Shown here: piece after piece, positions 2,919-38,333 of the stretch
Layout of the letters: each line of letters starts with the position of its first letter
Numbering within the stretch: the stretch's first letter is position 1
Sequence record: PP456878.1
Strand: one strand, 5' to 3'
DNA from: Pseudomonas phage vB_PaePAO1-KEN19
DNA length: 64,000 bases
Position numbers and translations under genes: made by a program
Notes under the pieces: generated by a model
Told to the model about the DNA's origin: nothing
The model's database searches: none
What the model saw: the letters and a program-made list of their open reading frames with translations, nothing else

Positions 2919-2995
2919 GCCGCTATAGCTCAGCTAGGTAGAGCAACGCACTTGTAATGCGTAGGTCCTCCGTTCGATTCGGAGTGGCGGCACCA
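2919..2995 (+). tRNA. tRNA-Thr(UGU): tRNA-Thr (anticodon UGU)
   Basis: Cloverleaf with acceptor gccgcta/tggcggc, D arm gctcagctaggtagagc, anticodon stem acgca/tgcgt and loop ctTGTaa, T arm ctccgttcgattcggag, discriminator a plus CCA. Confidence 0.85.
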
Positions 2996-29791: not shown

Positions 29792-30055
29792 TTAACTATT
29801 GGTTTCACCACGAGTATTGAATTCTAAATCCAATACAACTTTAGTAAATTCTTCCAGTGCACCACCCTCGTAGATGAGTGGGTCACTGTCACCCCGGTAC
29901 ATGCTACCTACCGGTACTTGACCACGAAACACCATCAGCATATCGTTTTTTACTATGACATGATGTTCATCCCCGACAGCAATGTCTTGGATGTGTCTCC
30001 AGCGTTCACGCAGTAAGCTGCAAGCGCACCATACGGATTTCAAACGTTCAGTCAT
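29792..30055 (-). CDS. hypothetical protein (87 aa)
   Basis: Same-strand ORF downstream of the promoter at 30079. Confidence 0.45.
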   Translation of the reverse strand: MTERLKSVWCACSLLRERWRHIQDIAVGDEHHVIVKNDMLMVFRGQVPVGSMYRGDSDPLIYEGGALEEFTKVVLDLEFNTRGETNS

Positions 30056-30078
30056 TGTATTGCCCTCTTGGTTATTAA

Positions 30079-30110
30079 ATTCATATTTGTAATATAGCTT
30101 TTTAAATAGT
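30079..30110 (-). promoter_or_regulatory. conserved early promoter (family 1)
   Basis: The + strand reads ttgtaatatagctttttaaatagtttaaatacaa, giving TTGTAT-N18-TATATT on the minus strand. Confidence 0.45.
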
Positions 30111-30135
30111 TTAAATACAAAAAAAGATAAATAAA

Positions 30136-30153
30136 ACCCTCCCCGAAGGGAGG
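30136..30153 (-). terminator. hairpin ccctccc-cgaa-gggaggg
   Basis: GC hairpin family. Confidence 0.6.
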
Positions 30154-30173
30154 GTGTATATTAAGTAATTATT

Positions 30174-30830
30174 TTAACATACAATTTCATTATCAGAAAA
30201 TAGTTTATTATATTCTTTTAGTGCATCCCCACCAACCATAGTACACCTGCCATAGAGAACAGATATAGCCAGATCTTTAATAGCGGGGTGACAATTATTT
30301 AACTTACTGATTAGTTGAGCTTTCTCAGTCAGATACAGTTCAGCAAAATCAGGCTTATCATTAACAATCGACCACATGTTTGAAATGGAATCTAGTAACT
30401 TAAGAGATTGACCACTCCATGAAATGCGAGAAAGTCTTTCATGTTGTAAACTAATCCTAGTTTTACGATTACCTTCGTAAGTTACATTTGTTAGTTCAGT
30501 TACTAAATTAACAACAGGGATTGAGAATAGTTTAGTTAGATCAGAAGCAGTTACAGCAGTATCCTCAATTACATCATGTAACCATGCTGCTTTATAAGCA
30601 GCGTGAGATAGGTCGAATAATTGCGCCATCTCAGCTACTTGTAATAAATGATGCCAGTAAGGTTTTCCTGAACCATCTCGCAATTGACCAACAGCAGTAT
30701 GTGCCGCAATGGCATATGATGCAGCCATTGCATTACCCGCATTGGAATATTTGCCATTACCTAGATGGTTAGTTAAGAGAATATTCTCTTTCCCTCCTTC
30801 TAGAATATCGATAATTTCATTCATTAGCAT
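30174..30830 (-). CDS. HD-domain phosphohydrolase of RelA/SpoT type (218 aa), a candidate (p)ppGpp or signalling-nucleotide hydrolase
   Basis: HHLLQVAEMA...AAWLHDVIEDTAVTASDLTKLF matches the H...HDxxED signature of SpoT/Mesh1-type hydrolases. Confidence 0.7.
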   Translation of the reverse strand: MLMNEIIDILEGGKENILLTNHLGNGKYSNAGNAMAASYAIAAHTAVGQLRDGSGKPYWHHLLQVAEMAQLFDLSHAAYKAAWLHDVIEDTAVTASDLTKLFSIPVVNLVTELTNVTYEGNRKTRISLQHERLSRISWSGQSLKLLDSISNMWSIVNDKPDFAELYLTEKAQLISKLNNCHPAIKDLAISVLYGRCTMVGGDALKEYNKLFSDNEIVC

Positions 30831-33228: not shown

Positions 33229-33558
33229 TTATCGATTAACTACACGATAATTATCAATAATAAACTCGATGTACTGTTCGACATCATGTAAGAAGCAGTT
33301 GTAACTATACCGATCAAGTTTATTTAAAGCTTCAGTTAGAACTGGTTCGATATAGATATTTATTTCAGCTATTGATGGAATCTCAACATACTTGTTTTCA
33401 TATTCGGTAAGCTGCTCCTTTACCTTAGCCATTTGCTTTTTGTAAATGTATTCCATCGACCATTCTTTATAAATGGAACGTGCCCCATCAAAGAGATGGT
33501 AACCAAATGCAATACCACCAAGCACCAGAACACCAGTGGAAATAGTTGACATATTCAT
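33229..33558 (-). CDS. membrane-anchored small protein (109 aa)
   Basis: N-terminal TM helix MNMSTISTGVLVLGGIAFGYHLF. Confidence 0.5.
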   Translation of the reverse strand: MNMSTISTGVLVLGGIAFGYHLFDGARSIYKEWSMEYIYKKQMAKVKEQLTEYENKYVEIPSIAEINIYIEPVLTEALNKLDRYSYNCFLHDVEQYIEFIIDNYRVVNR

Positions 33559-33686: not shown

Positions 33687-34214
33687 TTATAGTTGAAAGT
33701 CTTTATCTTCTTCAATGATTTCATAACCTGGTAAATTAACTATATTTTTATTTAAACGAACTCGTTCATCTACTAGGTATTTAACTACTTTAAGTAATTG
33801 ACTTATCGACAGGTCATTATTTTCATCAGTATCTGATTTAAAAATACGACCACTGGTAGGTGAAGCATTCGTAAAACAAATACCTTCATTATCTTTATAA
33901 ATATCATAATACCATACGACATATGGATTATTGGTATTACTTATGACAAATACTAAAAACAGATCTTCATCATCACCTTGACCATTCAGGATCCCGATAT
34001 TTTTTCGATGCGTTATACCACCTGTAATAACTAGGCCGTTGACATCATCACTGAATTTAAATATATCATACCCACCTTCAAGTTTACCATTTTCAAAATA
34101 CTGTAATAGCGCACCACCTACTACAGCACCCCATGAAAAGAAGTTATCTTTATTTAAATGCTCAACCATCTTAAAAATCCTCTTTAGGTTCAGTGATCCG
34201 AGAATAAAGAACAA
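33687..34214 (-). CDS. hypothetical protein (175 aa)
   Basis: Same-strand ORF. Confidence 0.5.
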   Translation of the reverse strand: MFFILGSLNLKRIFKMVEHLNKDNFFSWGAVVGGALLQYFENGKLEGGYDIFKFSDDVNGLVITGGITHRKNIGILNGQGDDEDLFLVFVISNTNNPYVVWYYDIYKDNEGICFTNASPTSGRIFKSDTDENNDLSISQLLKVVKYLVDERVRLNKNIVNLPGYEIIEEDKDFQL

Positions 34215-34312
34215 ACATATCAGTTAGGATATTTCTATCTAGAATGGTACGTGTAAGTAAGATTCCATATTGAAATATACCTGTAGTATACAAATTATAA
34301 AACAACATAAAA

Positions 34313-34942: not shown

Positions 34943-35443
34943 TTAATTTTCCACAATATCCTGGATGGTACGTAGACTTTCTTGCATTGTCAGTAAGAAA
35001 TTACGATAAGGTTCACTGGTGTCCAAAAAAGGTGGCATGTTTAACCTATTAGTAACCTCTTCTAGAAATTCTTTATACTTATAAAGATTAATAGTGAATT
35101 TATTACAATCTGGATCAGTAGTAGTTGGGATAATATAATTACGAATAATGTAGTAAATATGAAAACTGCTACCATATTCAATTAAAGTATAAGGATTATC
35201 ATCAATGAATTTCTGTGCTTCTTTTCCTTTTAAGGCGAAATCTTCTCGTTCAACGATTTCATGAAGTAGCGGCCCTAAGAATTGCATTGGAATCACACCA
35301 TACATTTTAGTGAATTCCTTAATATATTTATATGTTACTTTTGGATTAGGATATACCTCACGATTCCTACCAATATTTCTAACTAGATATAGTTTTTCTT
35401 TTACTAAGATATTTTCGATGCATAGTTCATCTTTAAATAGCAT
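34943..35443 (-). CDS. hypothetical protein (166 aa)
   Basis: Same-strand ORF. Confidence 0.5.
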   Translation of the reverse strand: MLFKDELCIENILVKEKLYLVRNIGRNREVYPNPKVTYKYIKEFTKMYGVIPMQFLGPLLHEIVEREDFALKGKEAQKFIDDNPYTLIEYGSSFHIYYIIRNYIIPTTTDPDCNKFTINLYKYKEFLEEVTNRLNMPPFLDTSEPYRNFLLTMQESLRTIQDIVEN

Positions 35444-35492: not shown

Positions 35493-36326
35493 CTAATATT
35501 TTCTTCGTTCGATATCCTGTAGTTTCGCGAATGTGTCGAGCTTGTATTGGTCAACAAAATGCCAGGCTAGATCGGTAAGTGTATAGATGTCCGGACGTTC
35601 GTATTTACCGAAGTCTGGTTTCTCACGACTCAATTGAAAATCGATGAACTGATCTAATATAGGGCAACGATCTATCAGATCCTGTTCAATAGACCCAACC
35701 TTATCATTAACCAGTTCTTGGATACGTTTATAAAGGATAGGATCTGACAGAAGAGGCAGTAGGTCATGGAATACCATCGGCGGATGTTCCAGACTTTCAC
35801 GGACCCACATTGCAGCCAACAGAGGACGAAGAGAATAGAAGTATTTCTTCATCCGGATCTTCTCATCTGACAACCAACGCATTTTGGTTTGTTTGGCCAT
35901 CGAGATATAGTGCATGTAACTCGATTCAGGGATGAAGTGCTTTAGCGCAGCATCACGGATTAACTTGTAGTCCCGATCAACCTTACGGTAAACGATTGGG
36001 GAGTTTAGCCATTCCAAGAGAGTGGGGTTAGACTTGTAAGCAAGCTGAAGAGTCTTAGTGATACTCCAACCAGCTAGGTCTAGTTCTTTAGACACCATCT
36101 CTTCAATAGTATCACGTGCTTCATTATCCACACGAACATAATGACTCGGATGGTTAACGTAAATGAAACGAACGTCATAGTCACTATTAGTTGAAGCAAA
36201 GCCCCATCCACGACTACCGGACTCACAAGCATAAATAATCTTTACACCATATTTCTTTTCGATACGGTCTAGTTCTACATTAATCGTTACCCGCATCTCA
36301 TCGTTAACTGGATGACGTTGATCCAT
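35493..36326 (-). CDS. Pol-beta superfamily nucleotidyltransferase of the ANT/KNTase-like type (277 aa)
   Basis: KKYGVKIIYACESGSRGWGFASTNSDYDVRFIYV matches the GS-x9-11-DxD nucleotidyltransferase motif and resembles the kanamycin nucleotidyltransferase N-terminal layout. TAATGG overlap with the upstream gene. Confidence 0.65.
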   Translation of the reverse strand: MDQRHPVNDEMRVTINVELDRIEKKYGVKIIYACESGSRGWGFASTNSDYDVRFIYVNHPSHYVRVDNEARDTIEEMVSKELDLAGWSITKTLQLAYKSNPTLLEWLNSPIVYRKVDRDYKLIRDAALKHFIPESSYMHYISMAKQTKMRWLSDEKIRMKKYFYSLRPLLAAMWVRESLEHPPMVFHDLLPLLSDPILYKRIQELVNDKVGSIEQDLIDRCPILDQFIDFQLSREKPDFGKYERPDIYTLTDLAWHFVDQYKLDTFAKLQDIERRKY

Positions 36327-36733
36327 TATCCACCAACCTTTTCAAATTTGAGTTTTTCTTCTTTACCTGTGTCCAGATACATGAACATCGATGTACCCAG
36401 CAAGTTGTATACAAACCAACCTTTGCTCACAAGTTCCTCTTCGAATTTCAGTGGTGCCGATAGTTCGCATATAGCCTCGTACGGGATGACAATAGGCTCT
36501 TTCTCGGGCTTAGTAAGAATCAGTGCATGATCTGCAAGCTTCAACCATTGCTTGCGACTACTGATACCAAGACCAATACTAAACTCTTCACCTGGATCTT
36601 TTCCGTTAAAAAGGCTACAGCGAGTTTCTTTGGTTACTCTATTACCGGCGATACCGATCGTGAGAGGATCAGGAAAGACCCCCATCAGTTCAATAACCAT
36701 TTCAAGTTGACGCTTCAGTTCAGTGTTGTTCAT
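36326..36733 (-). CDS. hypothetical protein (135 aa), translationally coupled to the nucleotidyltransferase
   Basis: Its stop overlaps the ATG of the downstream gene (TAATGG). Confidence 0.5.
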   Translation of the reverse strand: MNNTELKRQLEMVIELMGVFPDPLTIGIAGNRVTKETRCSLFNGKDPGEEFSIGLGISSRKQWLKLADHALILTKPEKEPIVIPYEAICELSAPLKFEEELVSKGWFVYNLLGTSMFMYLDTGKEEKLKFEKVGG

Positions 36734-36841
36734 AGGACAAATTCCTTTGTATTGTATTTACGTACTACATCGGTCCACTAGGCAGGAGTCTGTGCATAGT
36801 AGTATTCGCTGAATATCCCAAATGAACCATAGGGAAATAAA

Positions 36842-36859
36842 GCCTCCCCAAAGGGAGGC
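36842..36859 (-). terminator. hairpin gcctccc-caaa-gggaggc
   Basis: GC hairpin directly downstream of the thymidylate synthase stop. Confidence 0.6.
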
Positions 36860-36866
36860 ATTTATG

Positions 36867-38333
36867 TTAGACAGCAACTTTACCAGCAATGTGTGAATGA
36901 TATTCGTAGTTTTCGATAACAAAATCATCTACACCAATTTCCCGAATATCTTTACCAATAGCTTCTTGTTTGAAACGAATAGTTGGTAGAACCTTCGGTT
37001 CACGAGTTAATTGAAGATCAGTCTGTTCTTGGTGATTAGAGTAAATATGTACATCACCACCAGTCCAGATAAACTCTTCAGCAATCATATTCATTTGGTT
37101 AGCTAACATGTGAGTCAGCAGACTATAGAATGTGATGTTAAAGGGTTTTCCTAAGAAAGTATCACAAGATCTTTGATAGAGTTGACAACTGATGGCTCGT
37201 TTCGGAGCACCATGTTGATCCAGCCATTCTACTACTGCTTCATCTGTAGCCTTTTCATAACCACGACAGACACGCAGAAGTGCTTTAACCTGCTCAGCAC
37301 TATCGAATGGAGGTTGACCACGAGTAATCTCACCACTAATCTTATCATGATAAGCATCAGCTTCGAACTGGGTTTGGTCTAGAGCTTGCACTCGTTCATC
37401 TACGGTCAGTTCACGGGTCCAGAACTGAATAAATGCGTGGCAAGGTGGGAGTGCCTGCTCATCAATAAGATGTGGCGCCCATGCACAAACAATGATCCGA
37501 CGAGAATCCGGGTTGGTGCGAAGTTGATCGATGATGTCTTGGATTTGGTCGATACGTCGAGTAACCACGCATCTATCGGTTTCCATGGTTGTACCTGGGA
37601 TATCCGCCACGAAGTCAAAACCACGCTTCTCATAATCAAACCACTCATATTTAGGGATTACACGAGTGTCTTCAAGATTACGCCATGTCTTACCGTAAAC
37701 AGCACCTAGATCGCCGCCGACCAGACGCTCTGGTTCTTTATGCATCAAAGCACGATACAGTCGCTTGTTATATTCAGCACGAATACCTTCAGGATTTTTG
37801 GCTTCATCGAACCCTTCAGTAGCGAACCTATTCCACGACGTTACGCTAACTCCAATGATGTATTGGATTTCCTCACGGTTAACTGGATATTCATCCCAGA
37901 AGGCCTGAATAGTCTCTGGAGTCATACCCGACTCGAATTCCGCTACAGTCTCAATGAATGGAGTAGAGTCATCGTTCATACAATGTAAGTACATTACGAA
38001 TGGGGCACCAATGAGGGCAGTTACTGCTTTAAGAACGGCCTCATCGGTCATCGGCTCATATACTGCGGTTTCAGGTTTAACCCACTCGTTCCAGATGCGT
38101 ACACCATTAGCGATCAGGTAATCCACCTTAGTATCACCTGACAGCATCCAGAACAATTCATGAATTACAGAAGCTAGATGAATCTTCTTGGTGGTTACAA
38201 CTGGTAGCTGATTATTACGCAGACTATAACGTTCTTGTTGACCAAACATGCTCTGAGTACCAGTACCAGTACGGTCACCTTTATGTACACCGTGTTCTTT
38301 AACTAAACGGATTGAATTAAGATATTGTTCCAT
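36867..38333 (-). CDS. thyA: thymidylate synthase (ThyA) with about 200 aa of in-frame insertions (488 aa)
   Basis: N-terminus DRTGTGT...VVTTKK...HELFWMLSGDT. Active-site PPCHAFIQFW. Motifs GAVYGKTWR, DSRRIIV and QLYQRSCDTFLGKPFNI. C-terminus GDVHIYSNH...HIAGKVAV. Three insert regions relative to E. coli ThyA, at residues about 86-206, 219-260 and 306-379. Confidence 0.85.
   Translation of the reverse strand: MEQYLNSIRLVKEHGVHKGDRTGTGTQSMFGQQERYSLRNNQLPVVTTKKIHLASVIHELFWMLSGDTKVDYLIANGVRIWNEWVKPETAVYEPMTDEAVLKAVTALIGAPFVMYLHCMNDDSTPFIETVAEFESGMTPETIQAFWDEYPVNREEIQYIIGVSVTSWNRFATEGFDEAKNPEGIRAEYNKRLYRALMHKEPERLVGGDLGAVYGKTWRNLEDTRVIPKYEWFDYEKRGFDFVADIPGTTMETDRCVVTRRIDQIQDIIDQLRTNPDSRRIIVCAWAPHLIDEQALPPCHAFIQFWTRELTVDERVQALDQTQFEADAYHDKISGEITRGQPPFDSAEQVKALLRVCRGYEKATDEAVVEWLDQHGAPKRAISCQLYQRSCDTFLGKPFNITFYSLLTHMLANQMNMIAEEFIWTGGDVHIYSNHQEQTDLQLTREPKVLPTIRFKQEAIGKDIREIGVDDFVIENYEYHSHIAGKVAV

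Follow-up and report, generated by a model that had tools for sequence, protein, structure and literature searches.

Introduction

RlaP nucleotidyltransferases owe their name to the operon linkage of their genes with RNA ligases (PMC7824862, PMC12776372), and they have been described as the most prevalent RNA-end-restoring nucleotidyltransferases of jumbo phages (PMC7824862). Here, we analyse a gene of this family, gp237, together with the small gene that precedes it, gp236. Both are encoded on the minus strand of a 64,000-nucleotide stretch of DNA from Pseudomonas phage vB_PaePAO1-KEN19 (sequence record PP456878.1; hereafter the window), in whose list of open reading frames (ORFs) they occupy positions 35493-36733 exactly. 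The window belongs to a phiKZ-type Pseudomonas aeruginosa jumbo phage, and the two genes are those known in phiKZ as PHIKZ236 and PHIKZ237.

Two characterised members of the family are PfRlaP of P. fluorescens and PaRlaP of P. aeruginosa, which are encoded between rtcB and rtcA and were characterised in a December 2025 preprint by Carruthers, Fatma and Huang in bioRxiv (PMC12776372). Both enzymes accept only RNA as substrate, neither DNA nor protein, and require a 3'-OH, to which they append 1-2 nucleoside monophosphates (NMPs), or their deoxy forms (dNMPs), with little base specificity; Mn2+ supports the reaction better than Mg2+ (PMC12776372). In a cleaved-tRNA mimic they favour the 5' half, and full-length tRNAs and rRNA-sized RNAs are labelled as well (PMC12776372). 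When RlaP filled in a trimmed anticodon loop ahead of ligation, aminoacylation was restored; the halves used in these ligations were 5'-phosphorylated (PMC12776372). The crystal structure of PfRlaP comprises an N-terminal nucleotidyltransferase (NTase) domain and a C-terminal helical domain, with a terminal helix packing back (PMC12776372). T4 NrdC.11 is a phage RlaP of sequence cluster 5, the Pseudomonas enzymes forming cluster 1a (PMC12776372), and across the jumbo phages RlaP shows the same distribution as the RNA ligases that these phages encode (Iyer et al. 2021, PMC7824862). No main-text discussion of PHIKZ236 or PHIKZ237 was found in the literature searched, and the paper on the Juk defence is silent on both; a mention of 'gp237' in a review concerns phage 201phi2-1, not phiKZ.

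Our analysis indicates that gp237 is an RlaP, which probably adds NMPs to the 3' ends of broken RNA, and that gp236 is probably a non-obligate accessory or a passenger. Four observations made here carry this reading, namely the family assignment, the intact active site, the distribution of the gene pair and the absence of a recognisable phage ligase, while nucleotide addition to RNA 3' ends is taken from the literature on the orthologues; from these we infer the role within the phage and the reliance on a host ligase.

gp237 is a member of the RlaP family

The 277-aa product of gp237 (35493-36326, minus strand), a protein of the Pol-beta fold, matches the Pfam family RlaP (PF10127), described there as 'RNA repair pathway DNA polymerase beta family', with an E value of 5.7e-90 and 301.8 bits against a cut-off of 23, and its residues 11-260 align to positions 1-245 of the 249 in the profile. 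Its phiKZ orthologue (NP_803803, 97.5% identical) scores E 2e-91 with the same model, and gp237 itself also matches phrog_14344, labelled 'nucleotidyltransferase', at E 2.8e-123. At E <1e-5 a total of 7176 homologues were recovered, and PF10127 was present in all of them among the matches listed. Beyond the phiKZ-like phages, the closest relatives are 262-aa proteins of Pseudomonas chromosomes with 45-49% identity. Because a close cellular homologue, P0043, sits in a cluster of the order Ro60-RtcB-447aa-210aa-RlaP-RtcA, which agrees with the operon layout known for PfRlaP and PaRlaP, gp237 was assigned to the Pseudomonas RlaP subgroup. Judged by its sequence, gp237 is a phage copy of this enzyme subgroup, from which we infer its own activity. 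The enzyme had been catalogued before, its family is known and was recently characterised, and the jumbo phage is among the best studied.

The active site is intact. The segment 'KYGVKIIYACESGSRGWGFASTNSDYDVRF' of gp237 contains the catalytic motif G37-S38-x10-D49-Y50-D51 (36174-36218, minus strand; the Pol-beta NTase signature hG[GS]-x9-13-DxD, with a regular-expression match at residue 37). An initial annotation of the locus, made from the letters alone, had already pointed out this GS-x10-DYD motif, and given the strength of the family match it lies far beyond chance. The third catalytic acidic residue, on which that annotation had staked its nucleotidyltransferase, is present as well: D83, in 'ELDLAGW', is encoded at 36078-36080 on the minus strand. 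Along with E35, G37, S38, D49 and D51, this carboxylate is invariant in an alignment of 121 gp237 homologues. An AlphaFold2 (AF2) model built on the same alignment (pLDDT 93.3, pTM 0.90) places the residues of the catalytic motif on strands 29-35 and 50-57, with D49/D51 on the latter; strand 82-88 (pLDDT >89) begins with the region of D83. Beta strands between residues 29 and 115 are followed by helices from 117 to 276, including terminal helices at 247-276, which would correspond to an N-terminal NTase and a C-terminal helical domain. An RlaP chain was not found in the copy of the PDB that was searched. The initial annotation had given the target as unknown; for RlaP, the substrate class is known and consists of RNA 3'-OH ends (PMC12776372).

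gp236 is not required by RlaP

The 135-aa product of gp236 (36326-36733, minus strand), which is acidic with a pI of 5.3, is an ORFan that falls into phrog_30953, where the function label is none. No match was obtained in Pfam (even at E 10), NCBIfam or PADLOC, nor in the PDB by sequence or profile, and a scan of IMG/VR returned nothing. Among 5.8 billion clusters only 7 were found, and an exhaustive search with a hidden Markov model yielded 5 matches among 1.8 billion representatives, all from phiKZ-like phages except for one 29%-identical paralogue, P0128; in the window, no paralogue was found. The AF2 model of gp236, built on a 4-sequence alignment, is uninformative (pLDDT 40.7), and Foldseek returned noise for it. 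Nevertheless, gp236 is a real coding gene judging by its ratio of non-synonymous to synonymous substitutions (dN/dS), which between lineages amounts to 0.06-0.19 and denotes purifying selection.

Some other candidates for relatives of gp236 were rejected or set aside. A 407-aa RlaP (P0008, 56% identical) on a metagenomic phiKZ-like contig (L004 3370-4593) was considered as a Rosetta-stone fusion of gp236 and RlaP, but its additional 130 aa are C-terminal, have no Pfam match and are unrelated to gp236 (hhalign probability 0.9%). The 210-aa protein encoded upstream of RlaP in Pseudomonas was likewise discarded as a homologue (hhalign probability 1.1%). The ORFs next to the locus in PA1C, KTN4 and L004 gave no informative domains. 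A protein of 3172 aa (P0126) gives 16 separate matches to the gp236 profile, all at about positions 26-49 (IGIAG...NGKDPG; E 9e-20), and these probably reflect repeats or low complexity.

As the initial annotation had observed, the stop codon of the 135-aa partner overlaps the start of the nucleotidyltransferase gene. In TAATGG (36328-36323, on the minus strand, which had not been stated before), base 36326 belongs both to the TAA stop (36328-36326) and to the ATG (36326-36324). The junction as a whole (36323-36340) reads ...GGTGGATAATGGATCAA... on the minus strand and includes a purine-rich Shine-Dalgarno-like run (AAGGTTGGTGGA) within the 3' end of gp236, ahead of TAATGG. Such an arrangement is unremarkable, since overlaps are common among the neighbouring genes: of the 36 adjacent same-strand pairs in the surrounding 17.6 kb of phiKZ, 7 overlap, and in 4 cases the overlap is a single base.

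The distribution of the pair was followed in about 55 phiKZ-like phage records. The expectation that both genes are conserved together was borne out by about 35 of them, in which the pair is intact. It failed in about 14 of the ~55 (the SL2, Churi and Wadjak1 type), where RlaP directly follows the thymidylate synthase gene and gp236 is deleted, and also outside the group, where RlaP has other upstream neighbours. Since Churi, SL2 and Wadjak1 have an identical 82-nt spacer, in which only TAATGG and the ~8 codons of gp236 before it are left, the sequences point to a single ancestral deletion of gp236 that spared the RlaP ribosome-binding site. An 11-codon mini-ORF in the SL2/Churi spacer (MNFLLFEKVGE*) could be taken for a kept translational coupling; we do not rely on it, the simpler view being that the remnant holds the ribosome-binding site of RlaP. 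In the SL2/Churi lineage RlaP is under purifying selection (dN/dS 0.18). RlaP is still constrained where gp236 has been lost, and therefore does not need it.

A third type, KTN4/fnug, is represented by 6 records, in which gp236 is truncated at both ends and RlaP lacks its N-terminal catalytic half. In this lineage (L007 1774-3243 in KTN4) this half is replaced by unrelated ORFs of 170 and 93 aa without Pfam matches, and the C-terminal half remains in fragments. The degradation of RlaP in this lineage amounts to a natural loss. The thymidylate synthase beside the degraded RlaP is 99% identical to that of the window, and the spot is sharply mosaic.

These data bear on a rival explanation, in which RlaP has in gp236 a dedicated subunit, accessory or regulatory, that targets it to particular damaged RNAs, bridges to a host ligase or restrains promiscuous RNA tailing. 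We consider this possible but unlikely. On its side stands the observation that, in the database and phage-record searches, gp236 was always immediately upstream of RlaP and nowhere else. The overlapping or nearly abutting junction recurs in phiKZ, in PA1C and in a metagenomic contig, and in the PA1C-like phages both genes, which are 70% (gp236) and 84% (RlaP) identical to those of the window, keep the same order and the overlapping stop and start. In the metagenomic case (L005, a 1.3-kb Logan contig), the 130-aa paralogue P0128 (213-605) directly precedes a gp236 orthologue, with which it forms a tandem, and RlaP; in front of it lies a fragment homologous to a 202-aa ORF of PA1C. The purifying selection on gp236, and its truncation at both ends where RlaP is destroyed, can be counted in the same sense. 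So can the parallel course of the RNA-seq counts of gp236 and gp237 (r = 0.99 over 20 values taken from a published supplement), with the caveat that the course of infection makes the counts of all phage genes rise and fall together to a certain extent.

Against a dedicated subunit speaks the SL2/Churi lineage, with its intact and constrained RlaP. Moreover, cellular and other phage RlaPs have no gp236-like neighbour: a 210-aa protein unrelated to gp236 precedes RlaP in Pseudomonas chromosomes, ORFs without detectable relation to gp236 precede it in a phiKZ-like metagenomic contig, and in phage Psa21 (L009 1836-4783) a DNA polymerase gene lies directly upstream with the same one-base overlap. 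There is also no sign of co-variation, as records with up to 6% difference between their RlaP alleles have gp236 sequences that are 100% conserved. Finally, in a single group of closely related phages common descent would by itself keep the two genes adjacent, and the frequency of overlaps in this genome deprives the junction of weight. gp236 as a non-obligate accessory or passenger is the reading that we retain.

RNA ligases are linked to RlaP in PA1C-like phages and not recognisable in phiKZ

The classic linkage of RlaP to a ligase exists within this phage group. In PA1C (L008 1989-6813), the genes p202, gp236, RlaP and p193 have overlapping frames and are followed, after a gap of 139 nt, by genes for RtcB, phosphoribosyl pyrophosphate (PRPP) synthetase and nicotinate phosphoribosyltransferase, so that RtcB lies 0.7 kb downstream of the gp236-RlaP pair. 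Two hydrophobic segments can be read from the 193-aa sequence of p193. The RtcB of this cluster is carried by 8 PA1C-like records, while RtcB of any kind occurs in only 17 records of Pseudomonas phages. The cluster may be a counter-defence island that combines RNA repair with salvage of nicotinamide adenine dinucleotide (NAD). In Psa21, RtcB is encoded about 250 kb away from RlaP.

Several points weigh against a repair function of gp237 in phiKZ-type phages. When the reassembled phiKZ genome was searched with phmmer, RtcB and RtcA were not detected. Scanning its 123 ORFs of at least 230 aa against Pfam (E<=1e-4) recovered RlaP, whereas families of RNA or DNA ligases, of RtcB and of polynucleotide kinases were absent, and the RefSeq annotation of phiKZ lists no RNA ligase, RtcB, RtcA or polynucleotide kinase. 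Nor does the window contain RtcB or another ligase, so that the association typical of RlaP is missing there, although it is not a strict requirement. The repair pathway is incomplete on the phage side in phiKZ, and this is the main mechanistic gap. In addition, RtcB joins 3'-phosphate or 2',3'-cyclic-phosphate ends to a 5'-OH. RlaP leaves a 3'-OH, and the hand-off from RlaP to RtcB is a second gap even for the model enzymes, given the 5'-phosphorylated halves of the published ligations. It also counts that the nucleus-forming (group 1) jumbo phages generally have fewer RNA-repair systems (PMC7824862). Since no ligase is recognisable in phiKZ, sealing, if gp237 repairs tRNAs, would have to fall to an enzyme of the host or to a phage protein that has escaped recognition.

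In connection with this gap, gp236 could be imagined as an invention of the phiKZ lineage that works with RlaP in ligase-less phages, either as a specificity or host-ligase-recruiting factor or as a brake on promiscuous RNA tailing, within a hybrid phage-host tRNA repair directed against trimming anticodon nucleases. We hold this to be rather improbable. If it were true, it would be an answer to RNA-level defence that the phage nucleus cannot block.

It has also to be considered that RlaP might act alone at RNA 3' termini in the ligase-less phiKZ-type phages, mending the 3' ends of trimmed tRNAs or tailing RNAs of host or phage and thereby altering their stability. The lack of a detectable RNA ligase in phiKZ would agree with such a role, as would the labelling of full-length tRNAs and rRNA-sized RNAs by the orthologues with little specificity for the nucleoside triphosphate (PMC12776372). 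However, the closest phage relatives have RtcB just downstream, the family is defined by its association with ligases, and the host carries RtcB (PMC12776372). A stand-alone function is thereby decidedly doubtful, and nucleotide addition ahead of ligation, with a host ligase in phiKZ, is the reading that we prefer.

Defence modules and aminoglycoside nucleotidyltransferases

The initial annotation had placed the locus among the two-gene modules of toxin-antitoxin, abortive-infection and signalling systems. Under this explanation, gp237 would be a nucleotidyltransferase acting as toxin, antitoxin or second-messenger synthase, and gp236 its partner. A Pol-beta fold next to a small, tightly abutting gene would suit such a module, and so would the structural similarity of gp237 to the defence nucleotidyltransferase HalB of the Hailong system (Foldseek E 5e-5). 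The assignment did not hold up, since no MNT, HEPN, AbiE, CD-NTase or PADLOC model was reached: MntA (NF047752) gave E 0.079 with 12.9 against a cut-off of 60, Polbeta (PF18765) gave E 0.15 with 12.7 bits against 26.9, and no PADLOC model matched gp236 or gp237 in the 2023 version, which may not cover Hailong. In gp236 no HEPN or other Pfam domain was found, and a conserved HEPN Rx4-6H motif is ruled out, because its single histidine does not fall on a conserved position of the gp236 alignment. gp237, on the other hand, belongs firmly to a family with demonstrated RNA-repair chemistry, and the genome around the locus is that of a lytic phage. Either gene has been lost separately in relatives, against the logic of addiction, and transposon insertions in gp236 are tolerated, an argument that is weakened by possible polar effects on gp237. 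We therefore regard a defence or signalling module as highly improbable.

The description as ANT/KNTase-like was correct as to the fold and wrong as to the family, which is RlaP: the closest solved folds in the PDB are ANT(4')/kanamycin nucleotidyltransferases (6un8, 1kny; Foldseek E ~1e-6, TM 0.42-0.45), and HalB, AAD(9), AadA, LinB and Tam41 follow. That gp237 modifies aminoglycosides or other small molecules, as a resistance enzyme would, has nevertheless a next to negligible probability, because the identity to the ANT(4') structures is only 12-15%, the TM values (0.42-0.48) are low, no ANT Pfam family was matched and the orthologues, in assays reported for RNA, DNA and protein, act on RNA only.

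Locus layout, expression and neighbouring genes

The locus is 100% identical to the corresponding stretch of phages PaSz-1_45_270k and PaZh_1 and 98.4% identical to that of phiKZ. It is flanked by the thymidylate synthase gene PHIKZ235 on the 5' side and by PHIKZ238 on the 3' side. A Shine-Dalgarno-like AAGGA (36743-36747, minus strand), read from the sequence, lies 9 nt upstream of the gp236 ATG. A terminator scan revealed an intrinsic-terminator-like hairpin at 36842-36859 on the minus strand (GCCTCCC-TTTG-GGGAGGC, then TTTATTT), which directly follows the thymidylate synthase stop codon and is conserved in Churi, SL2 and Wadjak1. Owing to this hairpin, gp236 and gp237 probably start their own transcription unit.

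Peptides of gp237 have been detected in infected cells according to published data. In a transposon-mutagenesis study of phiKZ, gp237-242 are listed as non-essential, with insertions at 3 and 9 sites in PHIKZ236 and at 12 and 24 sites in PHIKZ237. This dispensability in the laboratory fits a conditionally useful counter-defence gene.

Regarding the neighbourhood, the thymidylate synthase of the window (36867-38333, minus strand; 488 aa) has large insertions with respect to the Pfam model, its residues 2-306 spanning only profile positions 1-154, and in SL2 and Wadjak1 an ORF for a GIY-YIG homing endonuclease interrupts the gene. Next after RlaP comes gp238 (34943-35443, minus strand; 166 aa), which has no Pfam match and a weak PADLOC match to the 'WYL/Csx1, CARF+WYL C' model (E 0.0018, 16 bits). 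PHIKZ239, of 417 nt in phiKZ (L001 6553-6969), is apparently missing from the window, and a 45-aa ORF (34171-34308, minus strand) occupies its position, as it does in phage Churi. By size and order, the ORF at 33229-33558 (minus strand) is the counterpart of PHIKZ241, which the transposon study cites as an activator of the Juk anti-jumbo-phage defence. PHIKZ246, annotated as a metal-dependent (HD) phosphohydrolase, maps to about 29857-30513 of the window (minus strand; from L001 2558-3214), some 5 kb from RlaP on the same strand, and for it a role as end-healing phosphoesterase is conceivable. Two tRNA genes of the window, tRNA-Asn(GTT) at 800-875 and tRNA-Thr(TGT) at 2919-2995 (plus strand), lie more than 32 kb from the RlaP locus.

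Discussion

According to the mechanism that we propose by analogy with the orthologues, gp237 would use a two-metal site formed by D49, D51 and D83, the orthologues preferring Mn2+, and would add 1-2 untemplated NMPs to the 3'-OH of broken RNA. Its chief targets would be the halves of tRNAs that were first cleaved and then also shortened by 'smart' anticodon nucleases, and a ligase would then restore the full-length, functional tRNA. For the PA1C-like relatives this ligase could be their own RtcB, whereas phages of the phiKZ type, including that of the window, would need one of the host. In the phage, the enzyme would serve a dispensable function in counter-defence or in the maintenance of translation. 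gp236 would be co-transcribed with gp237 and its 3' end would bear the RlaP ribosome-binding site, the protein itself being either an accessory that is not obligate or a passenger without relation to RlaP, in an accessory island of variable content.

Immunity that targets DNA is evaded by the nucleus-forming jumbo phages, which stay exposed to RNA-targeting defences. Any RNA-repair gene therefore bears on the conflict between phage and host and on therapy with phiKZ-like phages. RlaP is, at the same time, non-essential here in the laboratory and lost in some natural relatives. What interest is left attaches to the ORFan gp236, with its possible connection to RlaP, and to the ligase that would complete repair in phiKZ.

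When the locus is compared with known systems, ANT(4')/KNTase enzymes have the same two-domain plan as gp237 and differ in the acceptor, an aminoglycoside hydroxyl instead of an RNA 3'-OH; no Pfam family is shared. MntA/HepT and AbiEii/MenT resemble the pair in that a Pol-beta-type NTase lies beside a small gene, whereas here the model matches remain below threshold, the partner has no HEPN features and the two genes are not strictly co-inherited. The second-best structural neighbour is Hailong HalB, with TM values up to 0.53 when normalised by target and an identity of about 10%. HalB synthesises oligodeoxyadenylate and pairs with the membrane effector HalA. HalB likewise makes or extends short oligonucleotides; gp236 hardly resembles such an effector, because no long hydrophobic stretch is seen in its sequence, and no PADLOC model matched.

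Closer are T4 NrdC.11 and the jumbo-phage RlaPs (PMC7824862), which are also phage-borne and are read as restoring nucleotides before tRNA ligation, with the difference that the jumbo-phage RlaPs track RNA ligases of their own and phiKZ has no recognisable ligase. The PA1C-like phages add to the pair an upstream 202-aa gene and, downstream, p193, RtcB, PRPP synthetase and nicotinate phosphoribosyltransferase, where the window has gp238. In comparison with PfRlaP and PaRlaP, gp237 is phage-encoded, is longer by about 15 residues at the C terminus, has the ORFan gp236 in front of it where the Pseudomonas operon has the 210-aa protein, and is not flanked by RtcB and RtcA, its activity being assigned by homology. 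It shares with them the Pfam family over the full length, the 45-49% identity of the Pseudomonas subgroup, the GS...DxD...D triad and, by its predicted structure, probably the two-domain plan.

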